DNA from: Candidatus Marinacidobacterales bacterium
GTDB lineage: Bacteria > Acidobacteriota > Vicinamibacteria > Marinacidobacterales > DATDRI01
Reading direction: 5' to 3'
Assembly (NCBI GenBank): GCA_965226495.1
Contig: OZ245365.1
Location: 4,384,001-4,448,000, forward strand
DNA: 64,000 nucleotides
The translations under genes were made by a program, and so were the position numbers. The stretch's first letter is position 1. Each line of letters starts with the position of its first letter. The notes under the pieces were generated by a model. The model did not search any database. It was not told the DNA's origin and worked only from the letters and a program-made list of their open reading frames with translations. Shown here in pieces: positions 47,496-64,000 of this stretch.

Positions 47496-50180
47496 TCACT
47501 TCGGGGGGACGAGGCGTTTCAGCTCTTCCAACCAGTTCTGAACGAGAATGAGCTCCGGTTGAGAGGTTTCGTCGTTCGCACCGGCGTCCTTGATCATCAA
47601 GAAACGCTTGCCGTCGCGAGACACGTCATAGCTCCGACCGGGGGCGCCAGCCTCGGCAGAGTATGATTCCTCCAGGACGACCTCGGGGCTGCCGAAGGCG
47701 AAACTGGGGTCGGTGCGAACAGAGACCGCCATCAGTTGCCCGGTTGGATCCAGGTAGAACAACTCGCCGCCGTCCCGTGCCCAGAGTGGCCGTGTCCCAC
47801 CGCCTCTCGAGATCTGGTCCCGACCCTCGTCCACGTTGGGGAACGGGCGCACGTAGATTTCATATTCACCGGAGGCGTCCGACTGGTAGGCCAGCCATCG
47901 GCCGTCGGGTGAGATCTCGGCGTTCAGCTCGTTGAACTCGCTGGCCAGGAGAGGCTCCCCCAAACCGTCGCCCTCCAGAGAGAGCACGCCGAGATCGCGA
48001 CCTCGTTGGGGATGGTCCTCCCGATAGACCAGCTGCTTCCCGTCCAAGGAAAAGACATACGGGTACTGGTTGTTCCTGCTCTCGGTGAGCCGCTCGACCG
48101 TGCCAGTGCCGTCGGCCGCCTTCCAGAACAGATTCCAAGATCCGTCGCGGGCCGATGCGAATGCCACCCGCCGCCCGTCCGGTGTCCAGGTCGGATAGGC
48201 GTCGCCACCGGGGTCGAACGTGAGCCGCCGCAGCGTCTCGCGGGTGAAATTCCAGATCCAGATGTCACGTTCCTGATCGCGCACGTCGAGAGCGAGCCGG
48301 CTCCCATCGGGAGAAATGCGTGGGTAGGTGTAGTTCCGGGGCTCGGCCGCGAGCGCCTCTTCTCTTCCTTGTCGATCCACCCACACCAGCATTCTTTCTT
48401 GCCCTCGCGGATCGCCGGCGATATATACGAGGGATCCGTCCCGCGAGATGCCGAACTCCGCCGCGCCGCTGGATTTTGTGATGACACCTTCCAGGACGGG
48501 AATGGGGTCGCTCGTGACCTCGAGACGCTCGAGGTCGAAACCCACCGCTCGGAGCGTGCCGCCGGTGCCATAGACGATGTGACCCGTGGGCGCGTAGCGC
48601 GGGTTGCTTCCACCGGGAACGAGGACCTCGACCTCCCCGGTCACGAGTGACAGCACCGCAATCTGGGCGTTCTCGACTGGCCCACTCATTACGGTGAAGA
48701 GAACGCCCTCACCCGCGGGGAGGATCTCGGGCCACCGGTGACTCCCTTGTTTGTCGGGCGTTGTCAGCTGCTCCGGCTCGCCGCCACCTACCGGGACGCG
48801 CCAGAGCCTGCTGGGCGCACCCGCAGCGAAGACAATGGTGTCATCGGCTCCCCAACTCGCGCCGCGGTAGGGTAGTCCCGGAAGGTCACAGATGGTCACC
48901 GGCGGCCCCCCGAGGATCGAGACTTTCCGCAAAGTTAGCCCGTCAGTGTACGCGACCCAGCTACCGTCCGGTGAGACGAACGGTCCGCGGGCGACGTTGC
49001 TGAGCCCAGAGAGCGGCGTCGCCTCGAGCCGATCCAAGGAGCGCACGAAGAGGCGGGGTTGGCCGTCCAGGAAACCTCGATACACGATGCGCGAACCGTC
49101 CGGAGTGATGGCCAAGTTCCCAGTGCCTGAAAAGATGTCGAGGCGAGCGGCATTCGGCGGCCTCGCCACCACACGAACGAGAGGGCGTGGGGTTTCCGGT
49201 TTTAGACTCCAAACTGCGACCCCCACGATGACGCTCGAAACCAATGCCGCGGCGAGCGCGGCTATGGACGGCCGCATGCCGACGCGCTGAGGCACGACCG
49301 GCGCGGATACGCCTGGTTGTGAGCCGCCCTCGGTGATCCACTTCAGTTGGCGTTCGACGTCCCCGGCCGTCTGCCAACGCTCGTCGGGATCCTTGGCCAG
49401 GCACGTCTTGACGACGTGGTCCAGTGCGGGAGGCGACATGGCCTCGAGTTGGGAGATCGGAGGAGGATCGGACGTCATGATCGCACCGATCAAACTCGCC
49501 TGACTCTTGCCCTCGAACGCCCTCCGCCCGGTTATCATTTCGTAGAGCACCGCTCCAAAAGCAAAGATGTCCGTGCGGCCGTCCGCATCTTTCCCTTCGA
49601 GCTGCTCCGGTGCCATGTACTGGAAGGTGCCAAGGATGGAGCCTTCCGCGGTGAGAGACTTCTGCTGCGTCGGCAGAGAGGAGTCACTGCCACCACCCTC
49701 AGCTGCCGCCAGCTTCGCGAGTCCAAAATCCAAAAGCTTTGCCCCCGACTTGGTGAGCATGATGTTGCCGGGCTTCAGATCCCGATGCACCACACCTTGG
49801 CGATGTGCTTTGTCGAGGGCGTCCGCGATCTCGACGCCGTGGCGAAGCGCTTGATCAAGGGATAGTGCGCCTTTCTTCAGTCGCTCGGCCAGGTCTTCGC
49901 CTTCGAGGTACTCCATGACCAGGAAGTCCACGCCGTTCTCCTGGCCGATGTCGTGAAGCGTGCAGATGTGTGGATGATTCAGGCTGGAGACGGCTCGGGC
50001 TTCACGCTCGAAACGCTCCCGTCGCTCGGAGTGGCCGGAAACTTGAGAGGGAAGCACCTTGACGGCGACGGTGCGATCGAGGCGGGTGTCCTTGGCCTTG
50101 TAGACCTCGCCCATCCCACCCGCACCGATGGGTGCGAGGATCTCGTAGGGACCTAGTTTCCTGCCGGGTTCGAGTGCCAT
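47496..50180 (-). CDS. Ser/Thr kinase - TM - TolB/PD40 beta-propellers
   Basis: LGPYEI.APIGAGGMGEVY, HRDLKPGN, DFGLAK, YMAPEQ, a TM helix and repeated SPDG blades. Confidence 0.94.
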   Translation of the reverse strand: MALEPGRKLGPYEILAPIGAGGMGEVYKAKDTRLDRTVAVKVLPSQVSGHSERRERFEREARAVSSLNHPHICTLHDIGQENGVDFLVMEYLEGEDLAERLKKGALSLDQALRHGVEIADALDKAHRQGVVHRDLKPGNIMLTKSGAKLLDFGLAKLAAAEGGGSDSSLPTQQKSLTAEGSILGTFQYMAPEQLEGKDADGRTDIFAFGAVLYEMITGRRAFEGKSQASLIGAIMTSDPPPISQLEAMSPPALDHVVKTCLAKDPDERWQTAGDVERQLKWITEGGSQPGVSAPVVPQRVGMRPSIAALAAALVSSVIVGVAVWSLKPETPRPLVRVVARPPNAARLDIFSGTGNLAITPDGSRIVYRGFLDGQPRLFVRSLDRLEATPLSGLSNVARGPFVSPDGSWVAYTDGLTLRKVSILGGPPVTICDLPGLPYRGASWGADDTIVFAAGAPSRLWRVPVGGGEPEQLTTPDKQGSHRWPEILPAGEGVLFTVMSGPVENAQIAVLSLVTGEVEVLVPGGSNPRYAPTGHIVYGTGGTLRAVGFDLERLEVTSDPIPVLEGVITKSSGAAEFGISRDGSLVYIAGDPRGQERMLVWVDRQGREEALAAEPRNYTYPRISPDGSRLALDVRDQERDIWIWNFTRETLRRLTFDPGGDAYPTWTPDGRRVAFASARDGSWNLFWKAADGTGTVERLTESRNNQYPYVFSLDGKQLVYREDHPQRGRDLGVLSLEGDGLGEPLLASEFNELNAEISPDGRWLAYQSDASGEYEIYVRPFPNVDEGRDQISRGGGTRPLWARDGGELFYLDPTGQLMAVSVRTDPSFAFGSPEVVLEESYSAEAGAPGRSYDVSRDGKRFLMIKDAGANDETSQPELILVQNWLEELKRLVPPK

Positions 50181-50360
50181 CTAACCCTCACCCGGCGTCT
50201 GACGACGTTGATAGCAGCACGGCATCTTTTGACACCCTACCGTCCCCAAACAGGGAGAGGGAATAAAGGAAGAAAGCCATCATTGTTGAGCTGAAAATAG
50301 TACCGCGCAGGTTGAAAAGTCAAAGAACAAGAAGGAAGCGAGTAGGGATGTCCCGGCCAG

Positions 50361-50746
50361 TCAGGATTTCCGGAAAGCCGCGTCCAAGGCGCGGTCGAAG
50401 GTCTTGATGAGCGAGACGCGGCGACGCTTGCAGCAAGCCAGGTGAAGAAGGTCGCGGGCTCCGAGCTCTGGGTAGCGCTCCACCAAGAGCCTTCCGAAAC
50501 GGACGTCCTCCGGCTCGACAGGCCACACCGACCCTACGCTGGACTCGACGAGAGCAAGCGCTGCATCCAAGGTCTCGATCCGCCGCACTGGCAAGTATGC
50601 GTGTAACAATTCCTGGAGAACTTCGGCTGAGGTAACGAGGTTTTCCTCTTTCTTGAGGCTCCGCTCGAAGAAAGCCCTCGACTCGGCACGCAGCGGGTGC
50701 TTTCGGCCCACCGCTACATGAAGACGTTAGTGTCGACTAAGGTCAT
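50361..50746 (-). pseudogene. vapC: PIN-domain toxin with a 1-nt deletion
   Basis: MTLVDTNVFM, then TA- GCG GTG (one base missing near 50714/50715, creating TAG), continuing VGRKHPLR..TSAEVLQE..ARDLLH.A..TFD. Confidence 0.8.
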
Positions 50747-50830
50747 GTTTCGGACTGACCGGAGGAACCGAGCGCTCGATTACGAAACGGTGCTCCTCCC
50801 AATCACGCTCAACGTCCTGTTCTTCCCAGC
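50747..50830 (-). pseudogene. Remnant of the cognate antitoxin C-terminus
   Basis: DWEEHRFVIERS at 50769-50804 lies directly upstream of vapC; no intact ORF or N-terminus. Confidence 0.45.
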
Positions 50831-50848
50831 TACGGTTCACTCGGAGAC

Positions 50849-51517
50849 CTAAGCATCCTCCCAAATTGCAGCGAGACCAGCAAAGGGAGTGAAATCACGC
50901 GAGATCCCCTTCAAGATCTGAACAAACTGCTCCTCGCGTGCCGGATCCCAACGGTCTCTCGACTCCTTCTTGAGTTTCTCTACCAGCATTCGGCCTCGTT
51001 GGGGCTCGTCCTTCAATACGCAAATTGCCAGTTCGATGGCGGCTTTGGTTTCTGAAAGCACGTTGCTGTCGTCCAACTCGAACATTGCACTGAGATCCTC
51101 GATACTGTTTATTTTATGTAGGTACGGCAAGGCGAACTTCTCGATGGCTTCGAGTATCGAAACTTTTTGGGCTTCGACATCTTCCGTATCGGCAAATCGC
51201 CAATCGAACAACGCGTCGGTCGAGGGCAACAGATTGTAGATGTGCGTTCCGACCGTCACACCGCGACGTTTGCTGGCATCCGATACTCTCGGCCGGTATC
51301 TGTTCAGTAGCTCCTCAATCCTCGTAAACCGGAGGCCAGCCGAGAACTCCAGTCGATAGACGTCGCCGCCACGTGGAGTGAAATAGATCGACAAGGACCG
51401 CACGACTTCTCGATCGCGACGGACAAAACGTCTCTGCGACTTCCGGTAGCTGAATCCTGCTCTGTGAAGGATTGGTTCCAGCAGCTCGATGACCCTGTCG
51501 GTCAGAATCTTCATCAT
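50849..51517 (-). CDS. Probable immunity protein (DUF4304-like)
   Basis: ATGA overlap with the nuclease-tipped gene. It has an L.P.L...GF.......F.R N-terminus and an I...ALPYL pattern, no signal peptide, and more AT-rich codons. Confidence 0.68.
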   Translation of the reverse strand: MMKILTDRVIELLEPILHRAGFSYRKSQRRFVRRDREVVRSLSIYFTPRGGDVYRLEFSAGLRFTRIEELLNRYRPRVSDASKRRGVTVGTHIYNLLPSTDALFDWRFADTEDVEAQKVSILEAIEKFALPYLHKINSIEDLSAMFELDDSNVLSETKAAIELAICVLKDEPQRGRMLVEKLKKESRDRWDPAREEQFVQILKGISRDFTPFAGLAAIWEDA

Positions 51518-54500
51518 TGTTTGTCGGCGATCCTCTCTAGGAGCTTTTTGAGCGAAACCTTAGCCTCCACTGTCGTGATGCGACCCGTCGCGCCCTGGAG
51601 CTCGGCGTCCGCTGCTCTATCGCCTACGAAAGTGCCACCTTTTTTCTCCAGCTCCACGTCCTTCGCACGTTGGGCACGAGGTCGTTTTGCCCCGACCGTC
51701 TTCACTTCTACGTTGAATAGCTTCCCATCTCTTTTTCTTATTATGAGGACATCGATGACGCGTCTTTGGGGATTCTTTGCTGTTTTAACCGAGATACGTG
51801 TTCCCTTGACTCTAACTTTGGGATTCCTCAGAAGTTTCTCGAGAATTATTTCTTCGCCGAGATCGCCTTGTCTCTTGATGCCCAGGCCGGTCTTTCCTTT
51901 CGGCTGCTTGCCCGAGACCGTCTTACATTGGTTGTGAACCCAGGCTTCGGTCTTTCCGACGAAATACGTATGATCTTCCGCGACTTCGAAGTTGTAAACC
52001 GTCTCCGCCCCTCGTGGCGACCCGCGCACCTGACGTACCTTGAGCCATCCGTCGCGGGCGGTGAAAATGGAATCGTCCTCCCTCAATTGACCCGCCTCCA
52101 CCCAGCCGCGCCCGGTGACCCAGAAAGGATGCTCCTTGGTGACTCCCAGCGTTTCCGAGGTTCCGTCCGAAGCCACCAAATCTAGATCGAGCGTCTCCTT
52201 GTTGGGCGTGGAAGCCGGCGTGGGATCGATCAAGCTGCCCCGATCGGTCGCCACCGCTCTCAGGTCGTAGTCGCCGAAGCTCAGACTCAGCGCATCGGGA
52301 TCGAGGTTACCTTCCCAGGGCTCGGCGAGGTCCGCGGCTCCGAGGGGCAACCAGTCGATGTCGGCGGCGGCTTTGAACTCGAACTGCACTTCGGCCACGT
52401 CTCGGTCCTCTGTGGTAGCGAGCACGTGCAGCGCCGTATCGAACGCAGTCCCGTCGAGAGGGCTGACGATGATGGCCGCGGGCGGGCGGGTATCGATCTC
52501 GGCATCGGCCGGCAAAGAGGGCTCGCTGAGATTGCCCGCTTCGTCCATAGCGAAGACTTCGTAGGTGTAGTGGCCGTCCGGTAGATTGAGATCGAGAAAC
52601 TCGTCGGGCGTGATGACGAAATTGCGAAGATCCCCGACCACCAGCCCGTCGGCATTGGCGAGGCGGTCATCGCGAAACAGGAGATAGCCGAGCAGATCGT
52701 CCTCGGTATTGGGATCCCAGTCGAGCTGCACGTCGTTGATGACGGCGTCGGGGTCGGAGGCGACCTCGGTGGCCGTCAAACCGGTGGGCGCCGCGGGCGG
52801 GAGGTTGTCGATGATCACCACCACCGTATCGACACCGACGTTGCCCGTGAGATCTTCCCCTTCCAAGCGCAACGTGAAGGGAGCGCCTTCCGTCAGCCCC
52901 AACGTGCTCCACTGAGCGAGCAGATCGCTTTGAATCGGTACCGGCGAGCGACGCAAGAGCTCGAGTGTAGTGGGCGTTTCACCCGCACCCACGAACAACC
53001 GGTACTCCTTGAAGTCGTCTTGGCTGAACGCGGTGCCTTTGACATCGACGAGTCCGCTGACGGTTTCGCCGGTGGAAGGTCTTTGGATCCGAACCGTCGG
53101 TGGCGTCACATCCACGACGAGCTCGGCCGGATTCGAAGGATCGCTCTGGTTGCCGGCGAGATCGACGGCGACCACGGTATAGACGTAGGTACCTTCGAGC
53201 AGATCCGGATCGAGGTACGTTGTATCGGGCAGGAGCTCGGTGGTGATCCGCTCGCCGTCACGGGAGACGTGATAGCCGGCAAGATCGGGCTCGGTGTTGG
53301 CGGTCCAGTTCAGCCTGGCGCTATCACCATCCTCGAGCTCAACGGTCAATTGGATGGGAGGCGCCGGCGGCGTCAGATCGACGTGGACCTCGGAGAGCGT
53401 TGAGGCTTCGTTGCCAGCGGCATCCTCGGCATGCAGCCGAAGCGTGTAGAGACCATCTGGCGGTGGGGCGCGAAGCTCGATGAGCGGACCATCCGTGACC
53501 GAGCTCAAGCCGACTCCGATCTCCGTGAACGCTGCCGCAACGTCTTTCTCGCCTGGCGCTATCGACACCGCATACCGGGTCAAATGCTCGTCGCTCGCCG
53601 TGCCCACGAGGTTCTGAACTCCGACAAGAAAACCGCCATCGTCGGGATCGGTGATCGCGACCACGGGGGGCGTGTTGTCGACCGTAACCAGGACACGGGC
53701 CTCGCCGGTCTGACCCGCCCGGTCCTCGGCAATGAGCCTCAACGTAAAGGGACCATCATCGAGCGACGAAACATCCCACTGAGTGAGCTCCGCCGCGGTT
53801 GGCAACTCCGTCGCCGCGAAGATTTCGACAAACGCATCGGGAAGAGGCGCAGCGCCCGGAGCGAACTCCACGCGGTAAGTTTCGAGATGCTCCTCCACCA
53901 CGGTACCGAGGACCGGTGTCGGACCGCTCGCCCCGGACAGGAAGCTTCCCTCTGCCGGCCCGGTGAGCGTGACGACCGGCGCGGTGTTATCCACCTCGAA
54001 CGGGATGATGACCTCGGCACGGTTCTCTGCCTGGTCTTCGGCCTCCACCCGAACCGCATAGTCGCCGTCCTCGAGAGCGTCGAGGCGTGCCAGGATGGCG
54101 TTCATCCGATTCGCGTTGCCCCGGGCTAGCTCGGTCCAGACGGGAGCGGCCGGCTCGTTGGTGATCGAGATGACGTAGCTTTGTATCCGCTCGTCTTCAA
54201 TCGATCCTTGGATGGCGGCCTCACCGGTCAAGAAGCCGTCGGGCTCGGGGGCGTCGAGCACCACCACCGGCGGCGTGCGATCGACGATCACCGTGACGCG
54301 TTCTTCTTGATTGACGCTCGGATTGCCCGGGAGCTCGGCGCGGAGAAGCACCGCATAGAGCCCGTCCGGAGCGTCGTCTCCTCCATCGGTCTTGCCGTCC
54401 CAGGGTCGCACCGCGGCGCCAAAGCCAAGCACCTGTCCATCGACGAGGGTACGAACCGGAACGTCGCCCGGTTCGAGGAGGGTCAAGAAGACTCTGGCGT

Positions 54501-57500
54501 CGATATCGAGAGCGAAGCGAATGCTCGACGTCTCGCGCCTTCCGTCGCCATTGGGTGAGAAGAGACGCGGCGTTGCCTCGAGGTCTTGAATCAAGTTGGT
54601 ACGACTCGCGAGGTTGAGAGAGACGAACGTCTCTCCCTCGTTTCCGGCTAGATCCCTCCCGAGCAAACGGAGCGTGATGTCGCCTTCGAGACCAAATGTA
54701 TTCCAGACACCGGCCACCTCGGCGTCGAGCTCCGTGGCGCTGGCGAAAATCCGCGCCCAAGTCTCGGGCGCCAACCCGATCCCGAAATCGAGGCCGTAGG
54801 CCTGGAAGTTACGATCGGAGACCGAACCCACGACCTCCACGATCATCGTGATGGGATCGCCCAACTGCGGAAAGGCGATGTTCGTCTCGGGCGGCGTGTT
54901 GTCCACCTCGACCTCGACCCACCTCCGGGCTCGATTGCCGCAAGCGTCTTCATAGTCGGCAAATACCAGGTAGGTGCCGTCGGGCACCCGGGCACCGCCG
55001 TCGTTCGTGCCGTCCCAGATCTCGAACGCCAGATCGAGTAGCGAAAAGCGCGACAAGAGCGTTCGGACGCGCGAGCCGGTCACCACCGGGCGCCGCTTCT
55101 CGTCGATAAAGCCCGGAAAGATCTCGAGGTCGACGAAGGCAAGCTCCTGGCTCTCGATCTCCAGCGTGACGTCGTCGAGCGTGCCGTCGCCATTGGGTGA
55201 GAACAGACGGAGGTCGGACCTCAAACCGGCGCCCTCCACCTCACCATCGAAGAAGAAATTTGTTTCCGTGCAAACCAGCGCACCGCCCCAGTCGCTCGCC
55301 TCCAGCCGTAGAGTGGCGTCACCGGTGAAGGCGGGCTCGTCATCGCCGTAGGTACCCAGCGTCCCCGCGATGCGGAACCCTCCAGCGGCGCCTAGCGGCA
55401 CGACAAGAGGGGGGGATATTTCGAAGGTTAGACCCGCTTGGCCGTCTCGTGACAACACGAGCCGGTACTCGGCCGCGACGTCGTCGTCGACCACGCCCTC
55501 GACGTCGAATACGTTTCGGATCTCGCCGCCGATCTCCCGGGGAACCCCGCAGATCCTCTGTCCTTCGAGGGGGAAGTTGATGGCGATGGTGGGAGGCGAT
55601 TGATCGATGGGTAGTCTAATGGTCCTCTCCGTTCGATCATCATCTACATCGCTCAACCGAAAGACGAATGACTCGATGGGCTCGAGATCCTGAGTCTCGA
55701 GCAGAAATCTCTGCGGCTCCTCTATCGGCGGCCGGTTGACGCTGAAGAGGATGTCCTCTTGTCCGTCCGGAAGCAGGCGTGCCATGGTCAAGAGCTGTAG
55801 AGAGGTGCCCTTGCCGCTGTCGGGTGTCACAACGAACTGAAGCAACTGCGGCGCCGGATCGCCACAGGATTCGGCCACCACCGGGGCGATTTCGACGCTA
55901 ATCGTGAGACAGGGGCTTTTGAAGCCTACCTCTCGCGAGCGAATGCGGCGTCGGGCGGTCTCGCCGGTGGCCGGATCGACAAACGGCTCGGTCACGACGA
56001 CCACGAAGCTCTTGTAGGCTTTGCACGCCACCCAATCGTCGAAGCCAAACAGGATGACGCCGTCGGTGACGGCCTTGGGCTCGAAGCTTTGCTCGTTGGC
56101 GTAGCGTGGATCCTCATCGCTCTGGATGAACAGCTGGATCTCTTCCAGCTCCAGGGCCATGAACTCTTGCGCCCAAAGGACGATGTCTCGGAGGCCGAAG
56201 ACATTCTTCTTCTCTTCAACGAACCGAGCTACGTCGGCCGGTGGCTCGTCCGGCGGCGTTGGCAGTGGACCGCCATAGAACAGGCCATCGGTGAGCACCT
56301 GGAAAGTGTTCGAGAAGTGCTCGTTGCCTTCGAGATCGACCATGCGCAGGCGGAGGACCGTGACCACCCCCGGCATGACGCCGGCCATGTCCCAGACGAA
56401 TTGGAACCTTGGCTCGGGAATCTCGAAGCTCGGGGGCACAGGGTTGAAACCTACCGGCAGGAATTGCTCGATGCGTGTCTCCTGCCAGAAGACCTGCGCA
56501 AAGGGCCGAAACTGCACATGGACCTCGTCGATCTCCTCTCGCACCGTTTCGGCCAGGTTGAATCTTGCGTCGCCCTGTGCGAGCTGAATGAACGCGCCGA
56601 TGCCGTCGTCGGATGTCGTGGGAACGAAGCGCACCTCCTCGAGCCGTTCGAGTTTTCCTTCCTCGCTGAGAATATGCGAGCCGAAATCGGTCACGACGAT
56701 CTCTTCGAGCCCCAGAGGCGTCGTGACGAGGGTGCGATTCCCCGCCCGGTCGCTCGCGTCGAGACGAAACCGATTTCCAACGAACTCGTCCAGATCGAGG
56801 AAACGGGTGAGGCTTCCGTCGTCCTCCGCCAGGAGGAAGCCAGGAGTCAACGGAGACCAGGACAGAGGATCGGCCCCTTCACCCAGCTCGCGGAAGTCTT
56901 CCTTCAAATTGGGATCCACGACCGTGAACACGAGCTGCGGCGAAACGCCGGCGACCTCCTCACCACTCGAGGAAGAGTTCACTCTCTGATAAGCGCTCTT
57001 CAGGAGCAGCTCGACCTCGGGTGGTGTCGAGTCGACGTGGATGAAGAACTCGAAGTTCTGCACGGTCATCCGGTACTCGCCATCGGGAACCGGCAGGCCT
57101 CTTTGGTCGCGTCCATCCCACACCAGCTCCTGGAGCCCGATCACGGGGTGATCGCGCTCGATGGTGCGGACCCGATCCCCTTTGTCGTTGAAGAATCCGA
57201 ACTCCAGACTGATTGGCTCGAGCACCCGATAACCAACGGTTGCGCTGTCCTGAATTCCGTCGCCGTTGGGAGAGATGAACTGCGGGGTGCGGAACAAATC
57301 GGTGATACTGGGGATATCGTTCCAGGAAACCCGTTTGACCGCACGGCGTTGGTTGCCCGCCAGATCGTGAACGGTGAGACGCACCAGGTAGGAGCCTGGC
57401 GAGGGCGGCACCCAGGTTGTAAAACGGGCGTCGACGACCGGCTCCGCGGCGGGCGGACCAATGGGGCTGAAGCTTCCCGGGCTCGAGGCGCGAGCGAATT

Positions 57501-60500
57501 CAAGCGTGTAGTGCGAGAAGTGAAGATCGGCGGCGGTGCCCTCGATGAGAACGCCTCCCACCGTGGACGATCGTCTCGCCCTCAAGTCGGCGGTGAGGTT
57601 CATCAGAGAGCGGAACGACCACTCGTCGGCGAACCCACGCAGGAAGCAGGGGCTGGTGACATCGTTGCGCGCGTCCCGCGACTGGAAGAGGAGCTGGCGT
57701 CCGGTGGGCGAGAAGCCGCGCACCGCCCGGTGGTTGAAGTCCTCGAAGAGCTCGACACGCCGATTGTCCTCGTCTAGCAAGAAGGCCAAGGTCCGCGAGA
57801 AGCTCGAATCGAGCACCGCGCGCTCGTTGGGAACCCAAAAGTCGTCACCAAACGTGTCGATGAAATCGTCGTCCTCCAGCGTCTCGGCCGCCGAGCCGTA
57901 GGCCTCGAAGGCAAGGCTCAACACATCGCCGGGAGCGGCGCCGATCTCGGCCAGCGGAATCTTGAACTCGTAGTACTTGTGGGGATGAAGGACGCGTCCG
58001 GTATGAGTGAAGCCAACGATGCCGTAACGAGAATCGGCGGTGGTGATACGGAACGCCTTGACGCCTTCCGAGGTTAGTACCTGAAGTTCTGCCCAGTCCC
58101 GACCGCCATCGACCGTATTGTCGACCGTGAAGTCGAGCGCGGCGTAGAGATGCTCATCGTCGCTTCCCGCCCAGCCCACTACCGTGGCCGCGGGATGGCC
58201 GGTGTCGGGCTTCGACCACTGCTCGAAGAGAGGCTCGTCGAGACCGTCAGCCGAGGTCTGGAGACCATCGACCTTCAGTCCTTCCTCGCTGGACAGTCGG
58301 TAGTTGTAAACGCCCTCCTCCCGGGGATAGCGCAAAGGACGCACGCGGAGGCCACTGAGCGTTTCCTCACGAGCGATGAGATTGAGGCGCACGGGCTCGC
58401 CTTCGGGAAGGCCACTCCACCCCAGCTCAACGCCTCGCTCGTGGAGATCGATGACCTCGTAATCCGCATAGCCGACCTCATCCAGGACGTCATCACCGGT
58501 ATCGTCTCGAAGCGCCCGGTCGGGAAGGAAGATATGGTCTCCCACGCGCAGCGTGACGTTGTCCACATGTGCCGCCTCGTGACCACTTTGCGTAATCTTG
58601 ACCTTGAACTCGCCGTCGGCGTCGGGTAGATGCTCGCTCAGATCGAGCTCTTGTTCGGCGTATTCGAGGCCGTAGTGCAACACGCCGCGCGCAACCCATG
58701 CGGTTCCGTCCCAAGTGTGGATACGATAAGACTCTCCAACCTCGAGGTGACTCTGAGCGATCGACTCGACCTCGCCGGTCACGGTATTCACGACGAACAG
58801 ACGATCGAAGAAGAAGCTAAAAAAGTCGATGCTGTAGGAGACGCGGACGACGAGCTCATCGCCAAAGCTCGACCAAGACGGTGTCTCGACGAAGTCGAGC
58901 TCGAGATCGCCGCTCTCTTGATCGGGATGCGGCGTCAGAGGGAAACGGATCGTGCGTAGCCGCTCACCCCGAGCGTCAAAGATAACCAACTGAGGCTCGG
59001 GTCCCGTTTGATCCACCACCGCCAGCCTCTGGCCGTCCGGCGACCAGGCGTGGTTGCGGGAAACGACGCCGAGGTCCGTCATCTCGCCGGTGGCGATTCC
59101 GACCAATACAGTTGCCGGGCCGCTGCTGAACTGTCGGAGAACCAATTGGCGCTCGTCCGGAGAAATCGTGATATCAAATAGAGAGCCGGTGCCTCTGAAC
59201 ACCTCACGAGGCGGCAAGAAACCGCCGAGAGGATGCGCTTCGAGGAGCCTACCCGACTCTCGGCGCACCAGCAGCGTTTCGCCGCCTTCGGCAAAATCAA
59301 CGATGTCGGTTCCAATCTGGTTGATGACCGGACGGCGGTTGTTGCCGCGCCCATCGGCCGTCCAGATCTCGCCTCGGAAGCCCTTCTCGAAAGCGATGCG
59401 CGTGCCGGTGCGATTGACCCTCAGCTCGTTGGGACTCTCGGTGGCTGAGAAAAAATCGGCCGGTATGAGCTCCTGCAGACCCCCGCCGCTCGAATCCACA
59501 CGATAGATGCCACGGGCGAACAGCGGGTCGCCCGTACCGGTGATCGCGAAGTAGAAGAACTCCTCGTCGTCGGTAGTCTGAAAATAGCTCACCGTCGGGA
59601 GCTCGCAGGTGAGATTGGTGAAGAGCTCGAAGTCGGTCCCGACCGCTCTCAGCAGCGAGGAGCGATTCGTATCGACGCTGACGGTCGCTCGCCCGATGGT
59701 GGTTCCGGCGCTGCCGACGGCAAGGAGCGCATAGTCGGCATCCGTCACCAGTCGGCCGCGGTGATCGAGACCGTCCCACTCGAAGCTTCCCGTGTCGCCG
59801 CTAAGAACGTCCGAAGTCCGGACCACCTCATCGCGCTCGTTTCTAACCTCGATGCGCACGTCCGCCGGTTCATCGAGACCATAGAAGAGCTCGGTCGAAT
59901 CCTGAATGCCGTCGCCGTTGGGCGAGATATGGCGATGGGTGACGAAGACGTTGCCTTCCTGAGCCGCCACGTTGATCTGCGCCCGGTTATTGACCTTCGA
60001 GCTCTCCAAGATCAGATCCGCAGGGTCGAGCAAGGCGACGATCGGCCGGGTCTCGCCGCCCGTGAACGTCCAGGTAAAAGACACCTCGGCGCCCGCCAAG
60101 CCTGCCACCGAGAAGACCTGATCGCCTCCCACCTGCATCCCGGCACCGTCAGGATCGCCCTCGAAGGCCTGCGCCACGACACCGTCCGCTCCCTGCTCAC
60201 CCAAGTTGCTGTTGGTCAGCGTGAGGGTGACGGTATCGCCGGGCCTCGGGAAACGCGGCTCCAGACGAAGCGCGGCAGGGGAGATGGCGAGATCCGGTAG
60301 GCTCAGCACTTCGAGCTTCTTGAAGCCCGAGTTGTCGTCCTCTCGAAACTCCGGGATGAGGTCGTCGGGATCGGCGACGACGAAGATGAAGCGGTCGCCG
60401 GCATCGGGAACCGGGCTCCAAACGAATTCCGCCATCACGCTGGCCGCCGGCGCCAGCTCAGAAATCACCGTGGTACCGATGAGCTCACCGCCTTCCCCCG

Positions 60501-63500
60501 GATTACCGTCGTAGAAGGCGATCATCACGTTGCTGGCGAGCTCGCCGCCCGAGTTGTTCACGACCGCCGCCAGCGTCACCGGCGCGCCCTCGAGTCCAGG
60601 ATCGGGCGCAAAGGACAACTCGAGCGATCGAATCGAAAGATTGGCCGGCCCAATGTCTTCCGTGGTGAAGGGAAGCAGGGCGAGATTGTTGGTCTCATCC
60701 ACCTCGGGCACCGAGGCGTCGGGGTCGAGCTCGGCCAGGAAACTCAGGTCGCCGATCCGGTCCACCCGCCACAAGACGGTTTGGGTGAGGGTTTCTCCCC
60801 CGTCGAGCTGAAGCACGTTGCGACCGAGCTCGATGACGCTGCCGCCATCGAGGATCGCGTAACGCACCGCGGTGCTCGGGGTGTCGACGGTGCCCCGATT
60901 CCGAAGCGTGATGCGGAAAGTCGCATCTTCGCCGCGCAAGGCGGCGCCGTCGACGAGCTCGACATCCGCCGGGACCACCTCCAGATCGAGGGTGGGCAAC
61001 GTCGTGACGGAGGTCGAGGCACGGTTGTTGCCCTCGCTGGCTTCGACAATGTCGTCTTCGGGGTCGAGACGAAAGGTGAAGTGGGTGACGCCCGCTTGGA
61101 GAAGTAGGTAAGAGAAGTTGACCACCGTCGTTTGCCGCTGCGGGAAGTTCACCATCTTGGTCTCGAGGAGCTCGCCACCCTCGGGGCTTCCCACCCAGAA
61201 CTCGACGCTCACGTCGGCCGCATCGGTGCGGCCCAGATTGCGGGCCTGTACGCTGAATCCGAGAGTGGTCGGGAGGGTGGCGGGCGCGGGTGGCGTCACC
61301 ACAATGTCCACGGGGCGAATCTCGAGATCGGCTTCGGCAGGAGCGGGAGCCACTTCGATGTCGAGTCGGGCGCGGTTATCGAGCTCGCTGAGCTCGTTCA
61401 CCGCGCTGTCCGGGTCCAACACGGCCACCAGGGTATGGTTGCCAGGAAGATCGAAGCTGTCCCAAAACACCTTGACCGTGGCGGTGCGCCCAGCAGAAAG
61501 GCTCGGCAGCTCGACATCCGCAAAGGAAACACCGCCCGAGTCGGGGTCGCCGTCGAAGAATCTCACCAGACCCGAGGGGGCTACCGTGGCGCCGTCGTTG
61601 GCAACCTGCAACGTGAGCTCGACCCGATCGCCATCACGAGGCTCGGCCGGAGACGCCTGGATGGGGCCTGCAAAGCGCCAGTTGAGAAACGCGGAACGCT
61701 GAAGGGCGTCGATGGCGAGCGCGGTGGCGTAGGTGCTCCCCGCCCAACTTCCTTCCAAAGTTTGTCGCGTGCGCAGATAGCTGCCGGCCTCCTCGGCTCG
61801 GATGGTCGCGAGCGCGTCCAAGGCGATGACGGTGCGTAAGACGGAGGCGGTGTCGTGGACGGTGCTCGGGCTATCGCCAAAGCCGCCGTCGGGATTCTGC
61901 CGCGAGGCCAACCACTCGAGGGCCCGTGTCGAGACCTCGGTTTGTCTTCCCACCGCCTTCAGAGCGGCGAGTACGAGGGTAGTGACGCGGGCTCGGCTGG
62001 CACCTTCGAGCACGTTGCTCCAGCCTCCATCCAGGTTCTGGTGTGCGACGAGGAAATCTCCTGCTTTCGACATGGCCGCCTCAACACCCGGCCGGTCCCC
62101 GAGCGCCAACACGGCCAGGGCGGTATCGAGGGGATCGCTTCGAAAGCCCGGCGACAAGCCCCACCCACCGTCTTCATTTTGGAGATCCAGCAGCTCGCTT
62201 CTTGCGTCTTCGCCACCATCGAGCAGACGGGTGAGGCTGCGGGCCTGGCGGGCCAGACCGTCCACGTTGGGGGGCGCGAGCGCTCCGATCCAGTCGAGCG
62301 CGCGGGCCTTGCCCGCAAAGACCGGATCCAGATCGCTCAACATCTCGAGCGAGACGGTGGTGTCGCGGAGGCGCGTCGGGGGAGTGTCCTCCCAGAAGCC
62401 TTCGGTCGTTTGCTGTAGCCGAAGCCAGGCCAAGCCATCGGCGATGCTGGCCTCGGTGGGGCGAATCGTACCGGGGTCGATCCCGGAGGGCTCGCCGCGA
62501 GCCACGTCGAGTCGTGCCTCCGGGAAGACCTGAACGATGGCCCGACCGCCGGTAACGACCGAGAAGCGGGTTTGAAAGGCGTCACGAACGCGGGACAGAG
62601 CGGCTACCAGCCCACTCGTAACCTCGTCGCCGGGACGTTTGAGAAGGATGAAAGCCGCACGGAAATCCTTCTGTGACTCCGCGGCGCTGGGGCTGCGGAG
62701 CCCCTCCACGGCGATGATGTCGTCCAAGGTGACGGGCGAGGCGGTGCCGCTGACCGTCGCTCCTCGCTCCGGCAGCCGGGTACGATCGATCTCGGGATTA
62801 TCGATCAGAAAGAACGGCTGTACTTCCTCCGGTGCGAAGAACCCCGCAAGATACAAATCGAGAGGACTGTAGAACCGGCGCGCATCGCGACCCAAAAAAG
62901 TCCCATCTCCCTGATCCCGCCAGTCGTGTCCATACATGATCGAGGCATCGGTATCGAGGAGAAAGCTCCAGTGGGCATCCTGCGCACCAAGCAAGGCTGA
63001 GCTTTCTGGACCGTTGAACTCCACGAAGCAACACCACTGGTGCATCACCTCATGCGCCATGGTGGCAAGGAGTTGTTCGAAATCCGGGTTCAGCGGGTCC
63101 GTTTTCCAGCGGCCGAGAGCGGCCATATCGACATAACCGAGGAGGCGCCCTTCGCTTCCAAAAAAATCGGTGTTATCGAAGACGGGGAGCCCGATCCCGG
63201 AAACCTGATTCTGGACCCCGAGATGAAATGCCAGAACATCGCCCGAATCGGGATCGGACGTATTGAACTCGAACGTAGTAAAGATGATGAGAAAGTCGAA
63301 GTTGTCGGGATGCTGCAGGTAGAACTCCTGCGCAATGAGGGTACGGGGCTCGAGGTTAAAGGAGCCGTCTTCGAGCTGCCGGCTGTAGTTGCCGATCAGC
63401 TCGATCACCGAGATGTGGTCTCGATCTTCGACGAATCTCGCCTCGAACTCGCCCGAAGAGATGAGCGACTCGATCGGGCCGCTGGCTTGCGCAAAAAGCA

Positions 63501-63609
63501 TCGTCGGGCAAAGCAGCGCATAGAGCAGCGACATGAGCAAGGGCGCACGCCGCACCGGGGGGACGGAACTCCTAATCCTGCGCTTGCTCCTTGGCCGGAC
63601 CCACACCAC
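51514..63609 (-). CDS. Giant secreted multidomain protein / polymorphic toxin (4031 aa)
   Basis: In order: signal peptide; HEVMH metallopeptidase (63040-63054); Q-N-x-D-G-G-[WF] alpha-barrel repeats; about 5 CARDB (DP...I.E..E.NN); SPNGDG FlgD-Ig repeats; TolB-like blades; VD.TPP Ig and FN3 repeats; HINT C-part (T.EHPFW...VYNFEV...HTYFV...WVHN); basic PD-(D/E)xK tip. Confidence 0.88.
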   Translation of the reverse strand: MVWVRPRSKRRIRSSVPPVRRAPLLMSLLYALLCPTMLFAQASGPIESLISSGEFEARFVEDRDHISVIELIGNYSRQLEDGSFNLEPRTLIAQEFYLQHPDNFDFLIIFTTFEFNTSDPDSGDVLAFHLGVQNQVSGIGLPVFDNTDFFGSEGRLLGYVDMAALGRWKTDPLNPDFEQLLATMAHEVMHQWCCFVEFNGPESSALLGAQDAHWSFLLDTDASIMYGHDWRDQGDGTFLGRDARRFYSPLDLYLAGFFAPEEVQPFFLIDNPEIDRTRLPERGATVSGTASPVTLDDIIAVEGLRSPSAAESQKDFRAAFILLKRPGDEVTSGLVAALSRVRDAFQTRFSVVTGGRAIVQVFPEARLDVARGEPSGIDPGTIRPTEASIADGLAWLRLQQTTEGFWEDTPPTRLRDTTVSLEMLSDLDPVFAGKARALDWIGALAPPNVDGLARQARSLTRLLDGGEDARSELLDLQNEDGGWGLSPGFRSDPLDTALAVLALGDRPGVEAAMSKAGDFLVAHQNLDGGWSNVLEGASRARVTTLVLAALKAVGRQTEVSTRALEWLASRQNPDGGFGDSPSTVHDTASVLRTVIALDALATIRAEEAGSYLRTRQTLEGSWAGSTYATALAIDALQRSAFLNWRFAGPIQASPAEPRDGDRVELTLQVANDGATVAPSGLVRFFDGDPDSGGVSFADVELPSLSAGRTATVKVFWDSFDLPGNHTLVAVLDPDSAVNELSELDNRARLDIEVAPAPAEADLEIRPVDIVVTPPAPATLPTTLGFSVQARNLGRTDAADVSVEFWVGSPEGGELLETKMVNFPQRQTTVVNFSYLLLQAGVTHFTFRLDPEDDIVEASEGNNRASTSVTTLPTLDLEVVPADVELVDGAALRGEDATFRITLRNRGTVDTPSTAVRYAILDGGSVIELGRNVLQLDGGETLTQTVLWRVDRIGDLSFLAELDPDASVPEVDETNNLALLPFTTEDIGPANLSIRSLELSFAPDPGLEGAPVTLAAVVNNSGGELASNVMIAFYDGNPGEGGELIGTTVISELAPAASVMAEFVWSPVPDAGDRFIFVVADPDDLIPEFREDDNSGFKKLEVLSLPDLAISPAALRLEPRFPRPGDTVTLTLTNSNLGEQGADGVVAQAFEGDPDGAGMQVGGDQVFSVAGLAGAEVSFTWTFTGGETRPIVALLDPADLILESSKVNNRAQINVAAQEGNVFVTHRHISPNGDGIQDSTELFYGLDEPADVRIEVRNERDEVVRTSDVLSGDTGSFEWDGLDHRGRLVTDADYALLAVGSAGTTIGRATVSVDTNRSSLLRAVGTDFELFTNLTCELPTVSYFQTTDDEEFFYFAITGTGDPLFARGIYRVDSSGGGLQELIPADFFSATESPNELRVNRTGTRIAFEKGFRGEIWTADGRGNNRRPVINQIGTDIVDFAEGGETLLVRRESGRLLEAHPLGGFLPPREVFRGTGSLFDITISPDERQLVLRQFSSGPATVLVGIATGEMTDLGVVSRNHAWSPDGQRLAVVDQTGPEPQLVIFDARGERLRTIRFPLTPHPDQESGDLELDFVETPSWSSFGDELVVRVSYSIDFFSFFFDRLFVVNTVTGEVESIAQSHLEVGESYRIHTWDGTAWVARGVLHYGLEYAEQELDLSEHLPDADGEFKVKITQSGHEAAHVDNVTLRVGDHIFLPDRALRDDTGDDVLDEVGYADYEVIDLHERGVELGWSGLPEGEPVRLNLIAREETLSGLRVRPLRYPREEGVYNYRLSSEEGLKVDGLQTSADGLDEPLFEQWSKPDTGHPAATVVGWAGSDDEHLYAALDFTVDNTVDGGRDWAELQVLTSEGVKAFRITTADSRYGIVGFTHTGRVLHPHKYYEFKIPLAEIGAAPGDVLSLAFEAYGSAAETLEDDDFIDTFGDDFWVPNERAVLDSSFSRTLAFLLDEDNRRVELFEDFNHRAVRGFSPTGRQLLFQSRDARNDVTSPCFLRGFADEWSFRSLMNLTADLRARRSSTVGGVLIEGTAADLHFSHYTLEFARASSPGSFSPIGPPAAEPVVDARFTTWVPPSPGSYLVRLTVHDLAGNQRRAVKRVSWNDIPSITDLFRTPQFISPNGDGIQDSATVGYRVLEPISLEFGFFNDKGDRVRTIERDHPVIGLQELVWDGRDQRGLPVPDGEYRMTVQNFEFFIHVDSTPPEVELLLKSAYQRVNSSSSGEEVAGVSPQLVFTVVDPNLKEDFRELGEGADPLSWSPLTPGFLLAEDDGSLTRFLDLDEFVGNRFRLDASDRAGNRTLVTTPLGLEEIVVTDFGSHILSEEGKLERLEEVRFVPTTSDDGIGAFIQLAQGDARFNLAETVREEIDEVHVQFRPFAQVFWQETRIEQFLPVGFNPVPPSFEIPEPRFQFVWDMAGVMPGVVTVLRLRMVDLEGNEHFSNTFQVLTDGLFYGGPLPTPPDEPPADVARFVEEKKNVFGLRDIVLWAQEFMALELEEIQLFIQSDEDPRYANEQSFEPKAVTDGVILFGFDDWVACKAYKSFVVVVTEPFVDPATGETARRRIRSREVGFKSPCLTISVEIAPVVAESCGDPAPQLLQFVVTPDSGKGTSLQLLTMARLLPDGQEDILFSVNRPPIEEPQRFLLETQDLEPIESFVFRLSDVDDDRTERTIRLPIDQSPPTIAINFPLEGQRICGVPREIGGEIRNVFDVEGVVDDDVAAEYRLVLSRDGQAGLTFEISPPLVVPLGAAGGFRIAGTLGTYGDDEPAFTGDATLRLEASDWGGALVCTETNFFFDGEVEGAGLRSDLRLFSPNGDGTLDDVTLEIESQELAFVDLEIFPGFIDEKRRPVVTGSRVRTLLSRFSLLDLAFEIWDGTNDGGARVPDGTYLVFADYEDACGNRARRWVEVEVDNTPPETNIAFPQLGDPITMIVEVVGSVSDRNFQAYGLDFGIGLAPETWARIFASATELDAEVAGVWNTFGLEGDITLRLLGRDLAGNEGETFVSLNLASRTNLIQDLEATPRLFSPNGDGRRETSSIRFALDIDARVFLTLLEPGDVPVRTLVDGQVLGFGAAVRPWDGKTDGGDDAPDGLYAVLLRAELPGNPSVNQEERVTVIVDRTPPVVVLDAPEPDGFLTGEAAIQGSIEDERIQSYVISITNEPAAPVWTELARGNANRMNAILARLDALEDGDYAVRVEAEDQAENRAEVIIPFEVDNTAPVVTLTGPAEGSFLSGASGPTPVLGTVVEEHLETYRVEFAPGAAPLPDAFVEIFAATELPTAAELTQWDVSSLDDGPFTLRLIAEDRAGQTGEARVLVTVDNTPPVVAITDPDDGGFLVGVQNLVGTASDEHLTRYAVSIAPGEKDVAAAFTEIGVGLSSVTDGPLIELRAPPPDGLYTLRLHAEDAAGNEASTLSEVHVDLTPPAPPIQLTVELEDGDSARLNWTANTEPDLAGYHVSRDGERITTELLPDTTYLDPDLLEGTYVYTVVAVDLAGNQSDPSNPAELVVDVTPPTVRIQRPSTGETVSGLVDVKGTAFSQDDFKEYRLFVGAGETPTTLELLRRSPVPIQSDLLAQWSTLGLTEGAPFTLRLEGEDLTGNVGVDTVVVIIDNLPPAAPTGLTATEVASDPDAVINDVQLDWDPNTEDDLLGYLLFRDDRLANADGLVVGDLRNFVITPDEFLDLNLPDGHYTYEVFAMDEAGNLSEPSLPADAEIDTRPPAAIIVSPLDGTAFDTALHVLATTEDRDVAEVQFEFKAAADIDWLPLGAADLAEPWEGNLDPDALSLSFGDYDLRAVATDRGSLIDPTPASTPNKETLDLDLVASDGTSETLGVTKEHPFWVTGRGWVEAGQLREDDSIFTARDGWLKVRQVRGSPRGAETVYNFEVAEDHTYFVGKTEAWVHNQCKTVSGKQPKGKTGLGIKRQGDLGEEIILEKLLRNPKVRVKGTRISVKTAKNPQRRVIDVLIIRKRDGKLFNVEVKTVGAKRPRAQRAKDVELEKKGGTFVGDRAADAELQGATGRITTVEAKVSLKKLLERIADKQ

Positions 63610-63612
63610 GGG

Positions 63613-64000
63613 TCACCTCTGATTTGGCTTTTCGCGGCTCGGGGCCGGTTTCTTCGCCAGCTGGTCGTCGGGGGGGGTTCGATGTAGAACGAGAAGGCGG
63701 GACTTTTGGCCTAAACCTTTGCTCTTGAAGAGCCAGACGGTTCGTATTTCCCCTGGCTCGTCGGGAGAGTCGGCCTCGAGACGCTCCTCGAGAACCAGCC
63801 GATCCTCCAAGACCTCTTCAACCACGGCGGTGGTGCCGGAAATCGAGCTTCCGATCTCCAGAAGCTGGAGCTTTCCCTTGGGGAGCCGAACCACGGCCTT
63901 GCCGTCCACCGAAGAAAGGGAAACGAGGACGACTTCCTCGAGTTTGCTATCTTCGACCGCTTGGGCGGGGAGAGCCAGCAAGAGGGAGAAAATTGAGATC
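63613..64000 (-). CDS. Exported protein resembling the PilP/GspC-HR domain, 5'-partial
   Basis: Frame is open to the window edge with a signal-peptide end (FSLLLALPAQA); pattern AVV..P.G....L.IG..I......V.EV..DRLVL.E; stops 3 nt before the giant gene. Confidence 0.5.
   Translation of the reverse strand, partial: ISIFSLLLALPAQAVEDSKLEEVVLVSLSSVDGKAVVRLPKGKLQLLEIGSSISGTTAVVEEVLEDRLVLEERLEADSPDEPGEIRTVWLFKSKGLGQKSRLLVLHRTPPDDQLAKKPAPSREKPNQR

Follow-up and report, generated by a model that had tools for sequence, protein, structure and literature searches.

Introduction

The closest described systems to the locus analysed here are the RHS/PT-HINT toxins, the orphan fragments of rhs loci and the bacterial teneurin-like proteins. 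In the portions of Zhang et al. (2012; PMC3482391) available to us, Tox-REase-7 is described by the motif pattern GxxxE, IxD, ExK and Q and is found with HINT and RHS. The available portions of Jackson et al. (2009; PMC2935791) describe the displacement of rhs C-termini and the presence of orphan toxin/immunity fragments. For bacterial teneurin-like proteins, the authors of a preprint (bioRxiv 10.1101/2025.11.11.687626) state in its main text that no obvious delivery machinery is known. We examined a 64,000-nt stretch of DNA from a Candidatus Marinacidobacterales bacterium (contig OZ245365.1, positions 4,384,001 to 4,448,000), referred to here as the window, in a genome (G000) that consists of one 6.34-Mb contig and is 94.8% complete. 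The window contains one open frame of 4031 codons on the minus strand (51514-63609), hereafter the large open reading frame (ORF; P0001). An earlier note, made from the letters of the window alone, had proposed that the large ORF encodes a new type of polymorphic-toxin carrier, i.e. a giant CARDB/immunoglobulin-like (Ig) protein tipped with a HINT end and a 138-aa basic domain, and followed by an ATGA-coupled gene. These parts are indeed present. However, judged by homology, an adhesin-like giant gene that has lost its end is most likely joined, in the large ORF, to what remains of an RHS toxin gene. The large ORF is not a new class of toxin carrier and should not be annotated as one.

Results

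The tail of the large ORF derives from an RHS toxin

When the tail of the large ORF (aa 3795-4031) was searched against proteins of 2217-7055 aa, 45 matches were obtained, all of which carried PT-HINT; RHS repeats were present in 41/45 and CARDB in none. The best match, P0231, is a protein of 3697 aa, and its last 231 residues are 100% identical to aa 3801-4031 of the large ORF. The sequences at the point of divergence are …MCFVAGTPIV…LFV|TPNKETLDL… in P0231 and …IDPTPAS|TPNKETLDL… in the window. Pfam divides P0231 into Transglut_core, DUF6531, RHS repeats (RHS_repeat, E 3.7e-128), an RHS core and a complete PT-HINT domain (aa 3428-3559, profile 2-136/137), and the parent RHS proteins also carry the TEN_YD-shell family. 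No close copy of the P0231 body was found in G000, where the best other match was 35% identical and where the PT-HINT of the window is the only one in the genome.

The PT-HINT domain of the large ORF is a fragment. It was detected by Pfam at aa 3801-3893 (51931-52209, minus strand; E 1.8e-12) and aligns with profile positions 41-136/137. The fragment retains the TxxH block (TKEHPF) and the C-terminal HN, which ends at nt 51931, and lacks the first 39 domain residues, including the N-terminal Cys (CFVAGT… in P0231). Pfam reported no RHS repeat or any other RHS family in the large ORF, in agreement with the earlier note, which had seen no RHS core. The same note had described a pretoxin-HINT joined to a PD-(D/E)xK tip; the assignment to a polymorphic-toxin module stands, with the correction that the HINT is partial. 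The large ORF therefore has neither the complete pre-toxin PT-HINT of a polymorphic toxin in the sense of Zhang et al. (2012) nor the repeats of an RHS/YD-repeat toxin, and P0231 has both RHS repeats and a core. By homology, the tail is an ordinary RHS/PT-HINT polymorphic toxin module with a restriction-endonuclease-fold tip.

The remainder of the large ORF is a truncated member of a giant CARDB/Ig family

The giant-derived part (aa 1-3800; 52211-63609, minus strand) was delimited by Pfam and by the alignment of colinear homologues. It comprises a signal-like N-terminus, an HExxH domain, an alpha/alpha toroid (SQHop_cyclase_C, aa 470-627, E 5.5e-9), five CARDB stretches (E 4.1e-46), FlgD-Ig (FlgD_ig, E 6.7e-23) and Ig repeats of the Big_3_3 (E 3.6e-20) and Big_13 (E 1.2e-23) families. 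Of the modules named from the sequence alone, CARDB, FlgD-Ig and Ig were recovered. The 'propeller' stayed below threshold (PD40, 18.6 bits vs a cut-off of 20.9), and Pfam reported no FN3 and no peptidase family; a HEVMH motif is present at aa 186-190.

With aa 1-3790 as the query, 355 proteins were retrieved at E ≤ 0.001 among 1704 scored candidates, and the following counts cover the best 120 of these 355. The 119 homologues outside the protein's own cluster have a median length of 6060 aa, and 113/119 are at least 5000 aa long. The closest homologues (41-50% identity, 6100-6900 aa) are colinear with the large ORF from aa ~20-60 to aa 3798-3800, and run for a further 2300-2800 residues beyond the point where its homology stops. 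In agreement, the best high-scoring segment pair ended at aa 3790-3809 of the large ORF in 72/120, at aa 3810-3839 in 7 and earlier in 41. Colinear homology to the C-terminal ~2300 aa of the family is absent from the large ORF, in which the giant part is cut at an Ig-domain linker (…IDPTPAS); '…DPTP…' linkers of this kind separate the Ig repeats. A remnant of the lost C-terminus was found neither near the locus nor elsewhere in G000. Matches at C1:3.12 Mb were considered as such a remnant and rejected, as they belong to a separate full-length paralogue with ~40-42% identity.

None of the 120 homologues carried PF07591 (PT-HINT), and BLASTP of the tail against all 120 gave a best E of only 0.49. 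Giant-family loci were collected by scanning one genome per species (76 loci, L014-L089). No HINT or tip copy was found in any of the 76 loci, which reach at most 10 kb past the match and so leave the ends of neighbouring RHS genes outside the sample. The earlier note had suggested that variable tips on homologues would support a polymorphic family. Instead, no homologue compared ends in a HINT or toxin domain and the tail is identical to the end of an RHS protein, which speaks against a new CARDB/Ig carrier and points to a one-off fusion with a toxin from an ordinary RHS scaffold, an outcome that the note itself had named as refuting its reading.

A separate observation concerns the N-terminal HExxH domain of the giant (aa ~90-360; window 62500-63340, minus strand). 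It had no Pfam match, and the N-terminal 460 aa gave 0 matches at E ≤ 1 against PDB sequences with phmmer. The domain also stands alone in proteins of 570-1100 aa, in many of the 45/401 genomes of the phylum that match. It may represent an undescribed family of secreted metallopeptidase-like proteins.

The fused form and an RHS-bearing form both occur in nature

The fusion junction lies at 52209-52210 (minus strand), where codon 3801 (ACG, Thr) starts at 52209 and identity to the RHS-bearing form reaches 52210. The fused form is present on contigs of 6.34, 5.41 and 1.85 Mb. In BLASTP comparisons, P0284 from the 5.41-Mb contig corresponds to aa 3310-4031 at 100% identity and P0285 from the 1.85-Mb contig to aa 682-4031 at 99.94%, and both span the junction. 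The shorter gene calls in these other fused-form assemblies are frameshifted readings of identical DNA.

In the other form, P0231, P0278 and P0280 are intact 3697-aa RHS proteins encoded on contigs of 0.76, 1.20 and 5.05 Mb, and all three end in the same 231 tail residues at 100% identity. These contigs also bear the giant gene of the window at 99.9% identity. The giant proteins of this form (P0282, P0283 and P0288) are identical to the window's up to aa 3206 and then enter multicopy sequence, which places an insertion at codon 3206/3207 (53990-53992, no strand assigned). The sequence entered matches at least 10 places in G000 and is the end of a ~1.09-kb repeat, with at least nine copies in that genome at 95-100% identity (e.g. 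C1:6020597-6021684, 1736807-1737894 and 1133807-1134895). We interpret the giant gene of the RHS-bearing form as hit by an insertion sequence (IS)-like element. The flank downstream of the immunity gene is common to both forms as far as 50194, and the exact sequence of the immunity gene product, P0002, was found on six contigs.

Next to these assemblies, public contigs were aligned to window positions 48000-60000; runs X1 and X2 cover this region only in pieces, in which gaps do not mean absence. The junction is crossed by a 163-nt contig (52121-52283) of X2, a run whose label is sponge metagenome; this contig extends 89 nt to one side and 73 nt to the other and has no mismatch. The junction is real, because it is present in two further assemblies (P0284 and P0285) and in the X2 contig, and the misassembly feared in the earlier note is unlikely. 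Run X16 agrees with an RHS-bearing form: the last 1079 nt of an 11,592-nt contig match window 51132-52210, and the preceding 10,513 nt do not resemble the window, a length that fits 3466 RHS codons (10,398 nt) plus 115 nt. A second X16 contig (52936-53990) ends at the insertion site. In X13, a contig covering 50185-52238 and another starting at 52209 overlap by 30 nt and were not counted as a bridge. A 38-nt stretch next to the junction, on its giant side, had 0 exact matches in metagenome_contigs.

Giant and RHS genes are tandem neighbours

A second giant gene in G000 provides an example of the arrangement. At this paralogous locus (C1:3108734-3137559), the giant2 frame encodes 6012 aa (C1:3119521-3137559, minus strand) and overlaps by 4 nt with the RHS2 frame of 3596 aa (C1:3108734-3119524). 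RHS2 has the Pfam layout of P0231 (Transglut_core, DUF6531 and RHS), and both proteins have signal-like hydrophobic N-terminal segments, as judged by eye. The two giant loci of G000 had no neighbours in common at E ≤ 1e-5 upstream or E ≤ 1e-3 downstream. RHS repeats on the same strand just downstream of the giant were also found in G008 (C2:3307614-3319929), G010 (C19:830677-850385) and G089 (C53:14-25652), and not in G014.

Adjacency could be tested in 49 of the 76 giant-family loci, i.e. those with at least 1 kb of sequence after the longest giant frame. In 37/49, a gene like P0231, RHS2 or P0232 started no more than 3 kb downstream on the same strand. The pair spans Acidobacteriota, beta-, gamma- and delta-proteobacterial lineages, Myxococcus and others. 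Culturable carriers in the scan include Andreprevotia chitinilytica DSM 18519, Massilia sp., Paucibacter sp., Lampropedia aestuarii, Marinicella meishanensis and Myxococcus sp. Among the 12 loci without the pair, L054 has an RHS gene further on, behind a split giant, and L030 and L075 are not real tests, as homology to the giant extends beyond the longest frame in both. L087 encodes a giant of 6199 aa and, 33 nt further downstream, P0232; this RHS protein has a complete HINT, and its tip shares 54% identity with that of the window. Together, these results demonstrate that giant and RHS genes are normally tandem neighbours. No description of this gene pair was found in the literature searched, which did not include the supplements of the teneurin-like preprint.

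The tip is a predicted nuclease with a candidate immunity partner

The toxin tip (51517-51930, minus strand) comprises 138 aa and is basic (35 K+R vs 16 D+E). It matched no Pfam family at E ≤ 10, Tox-REase included. At E ≤ 0.001, 108 relatives were found, all of them C-terminal domains in proteins of 76-2857 aa. RHS_repeat and RHS accompanied the domain in 12/108, PT-HINT in 6, Tox-PAAR-like in 2 and weak NERD or DUF4143 matches in 12; Tox-REase was absent from the top 25 families of these relatives. The tip is therefore a C-terminal domain found on more than one scaffold, namely RHS, HINT and PAAR-like proteins. With aa 3894 counted as residue 1, its conserved columns are G..E, D60, E75-V-K77, Q87 and K90-D91, of which D60, E75 and K77 are invariant or nearly so.

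An AlphaFold2 model of the tip (mean predicted local distance difference test [pLDDT] 89.3) has the element order alpha-beta-beta-beta-alpha-beta (helices 18-34 and 85-97; strands 39-49, 57-65, 71-77 and 99-102). Foldseek against the PDB gave no match at E ≤ 0.001 (best 0.015), and nearly all of its sub-threshold top rows were PD-(D/E)xK nucleases. In agreement, VIA matched the tip to VRR_NUC, a splicing endonuclease, TnsA, Hjc and NucS at Z 6-7.3, within structural matches that were middling overall (Z 5-7.3); those to VRR_NUC, Hjc, TnsA and NucS had root-mean-square deviations of 2.4-3.3 Å over 76-94 aligned residues. According to the model, the tip has a PD-(D/E)xK (restriction-endonuclease-like) nuclease fold.

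The stop codon of the toxin overlaps with the start codon of P0002 (222 aa; 50849-51517, minus strand) in an ATGA. Complex prediction for the tip and P0002 scored 0.90, 0.88 and 0.90, compared with 0.01 for the best control, with contact agreement of at least 85% and partner pLDDT of at least 88 between runs. The 0.90 mark was reached by 58/80 solved complexes and 2/110 mismatched pairs; as the prediction for the tip and P0002 was run on our own alignments, these counts apply to it only roughly. The complex score supports binding of P0002 to the tip, consistent with its proposed role as the immunity partner, which is thus borne out at the level of prediction. P0002 gave a weak match to DUF4304 (PF14137; E 0.028, 14.8 bits vs a cut-off of 23.2, profile 2-114/115), which was also seen in 3/5 of its relatives, and in the Atlas it scored 0.94, with 217/256 features in common with DUF4304-bearing clusters. 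These matches weakly suggest that P0002 is a distant DUF4304-like protein. A word-based search found relatives of P0002 in only one other 90% cluster, and no paper describing DUF4304 as an immunity protein was found in the literature searched.

As had been noticed from the sequence, the tip and the downstream gene are more AT-rich than the body. The GC content is 0.628 in the giant part, 0.595 in the HINT piece, 0.519 in the tip and 0.530 in the downstream gene, with third-position values (GC3) of 0.76, 0.71, 0.565 and 0.63, respectively. The composition break (0.63 to 0.52) thus falls at the HINT/tip boundary and not at the fusion junction (52209/52210).

Neighbouring genes offer no delivery route

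Delivery through a type II secretion system (T2SS) or type IV pili (T4P) had been proposed on the basis of the gene upstream of the large ORF. This gene, which is cut by the window end (63613-63999, minus strand), matched T2SSC only below threshold (E 3e-4; 20.9-21 bits vs a cut-off of 27). No secretion families were found in the next eight frames upstream, where the next genes encode unknowns and an M20 peptidase, and T2SS/T4P delivery was rejected. Neither VipB/TssC, the sheath of the type VI secretion system, nor Hcp was found in the genome at its estimated completeness.

Two further observations concern the region downstream of the immunity gene. A PIN-domain gene (50361-50711, minus strand; E 9.4e-13) matches its profile only from position 13 and has no antitoxin-like neighbour. 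Such a gene could be either a remnant or an orphan VapC. Between 49604 and 50405, summed contig depth in X13 and X16 was ~1000-1250, compared with ~15-40 elsewhere. This region covers the start of a Ser/Thr kinase gene (47496-50180) and the spacer beyond, and the high depth therefore indicates a repeat, or sequence common to many other organisms.

Discussion

A probable single deletion between neighbouring genes

We consider it likely that a deletion between two neighbouring genes, a giant and an RHS toxin, gave rise to the large ORF as a chimera. In the proposed ancestral state, the gene for a ~6000-aa secreted CARDB/Ig giant would have lain directly upstream, on the same strand, of the gene for a 3697-aa Sec-exported RHS protein with transglutaminase-like and DUF6531 domains, RHS repeats, a complete PT-HINT and a nuclease tip, followed by the immunity gene. 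A single deletion of ~17-20 kb, as estimated from homologue lengths, would then have taken the last ~2300-2900 codons of the giant, the intergenic spacer and RHS codons 1-3466, and joined giant codon 3800 in frame to RHS codon 3467. The remaining parts would be a shortened giant, the last 93 residues of the HINT, the PD-(D/E)xK tip and the still-coupled immunity gene. One deletion is favoured because it explains the structure of the window between unchanged flanks, and since an in-frame join has a one-in-three chance, no selection is needed. That the tip and its immunity gene are low in GC would go back to an older, separate event, the usual cassette exchange at the HINT end.

In such a chimera, the tip would no longer be caged in an RHS shell. 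Its release is probably impossible as well, since the first 39 residues of the HINT, with the N-terminal Cys among them, are missing. The fused variant would be disarmed yet still make the immunity protein, and would be protected from sister cells with the intact RHS toxin. The immunity gene would still be translated via ATGA coupling, and its transcription may also start within the tail, where three promoter-like sites were found vs 0.7 expected, a weak indication.

Several points weigh against this reconstruction. For the RHS-bearing assemblies, it is an inference that the giant gene continues past codon 3800 and abuts the RHS gene. The assemblies and runs may not be independent samples. In X13, the assembly graph branches at 52209-52238, the first 30 nt of the giant side, and has no branch on the tip side; this is not fully explained and hints at a third arrangement or strain in the sample. 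Finally, the ORF is intact, in frame and cut exactly at an Ig linker in several assemblies, which fits a selected working fusion too.

Such a working fusion, i.e. a giant-HINT-toxin protein that is exported and presents or releases its nuclease as a contact-dependent toxin, is the strongest of the alternatives, although we regard it as improbable. In its favour, all 4031 codons are open, the join falls at an Ig linker, the HINT still has the TxxH block and ends, as relatives do, in HN-x-C, the immunity gene is retained and predicted to bind the tip, and the fused form occurs in three assemblies and one metagenome contig. Against these stand the loss of the HINT N-terminus with its Cys, the loss of the RHS shell and of ~2300 aa of the giant, the lack of HINT or tip in the 120 listed homologues and the 76 loci, and the 45 large HINT-bearing tail relatives, which have RHS repeats in most cases and CARDB in none.

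Somewhat less probable still is that the giant took up, by recombination, an orphan fragment consisting of a partial HINT, the tip and the immunity gene, with the RHS gene lost or never adjacent. Orphans that comprise a toxin, its immunity gene and part of the sequence upstream are known at rhs loci (Jackson et al. 2009), and the tip and immunity gene are of foreign composition. However, the HINT fragment is of near-host composition (GC3 0.71 vs 0.76), the downstream flank is identical in both forms and giant-RHS adjacency is the rule; moreover, two events and a ~7-kb loss from the giant would be needed instead of one deletion. An assembler chimera at 52209/52210 is scarcely credible. An assembly program could be misled by the 100% identity of the two forms to either side of the junction, and the X13 contigs break exactly there, but P0284 and P0285 span it at 99.9-100% identity, the X2 contig bridges it, the X13 contig 50185-52238 goes 28 nt into giant-only sequence and G000 is a single contig.

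The deletion reading illustrates that a single deletion can yield a convincing-looking novel architecture. It also implies that a natural population holds an armed form, with an intact RHS toxin and an IS-hit giant, and a disarmed form, in which the fusion has preserved only the tip and its immunity gene. Such a pattern would be expected where cells retain immunity after losing the weapon. In our view, the giant and RHS pair is a more interesting by-product of the analysis than the fusion ORF itself. More tentatively, and with doubt outweighing confidence, the giant and the downstream teneurin-like RHS toxin might form a conserved two-gene toxin system, in which the giant would be the surface anchor, target-binding or delivery partner of the Sec-exported toxin, and the window allele a disarmed-but-immune variant coexisting with armed sister strains in a sponge-associated population.

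Comparison with known systems

Compared with the RHS/PT-HINT toxins, as far as the available portions of PMC3482391 describe them, the window shares the PT-HINT of its tail, a tip whose motifs read G..E / D / ExK / Q, and an immunity gene; the complete RHS architecture is found in P0231, the intact parent. The window differs in that RHS repeats are lacking in the large ORF and its HINT is partial, and the tip has no Pfam Tox-REase match; with Tox-REase-7 it agrees in the motif pattern only, and the family model is unmatched. The DUF4304-like immunity protein is a further difference, as DUF4304 does not occur in those portions of the article. The rhs orphans of Jackson et al. (2009) are alike in that a tip, an immunity gene and part of the preceding conserved region survive rearrangement. 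The orphans are silent behind an rhs gene, whereas the module of the window continues the reading frame of a different, neighbouring gene, the body of the rhs gene having been deleted.

The pairing of giant and RHS genes invites a second comparison. In the Tc (ABC) toxins, a large TcA protein is encoded beside an RHS-type TcB/TcC cocoon. The likeness, a very large secreted protein beside an RHS shell with a toxic C-terminus, is a speculative analogy. The giant differs in being built of CARDB/Ig repeats, and Pfam found no TcA, SpvB or TcdB family in the giant or in P0231.

The parent RHS proteins resemble the teneurin-like proteins, with which they share Sec-type export, diverse tips that include HINT types and a downstream immunity gene. 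The main text of the teneurin-like preprint does not mention a conserved upstream giant gene, and its neighbourhood figures may show one. As teneurin-like toxins are said to be without a known delivery machinery, the giant is a testable candidate for their partner.

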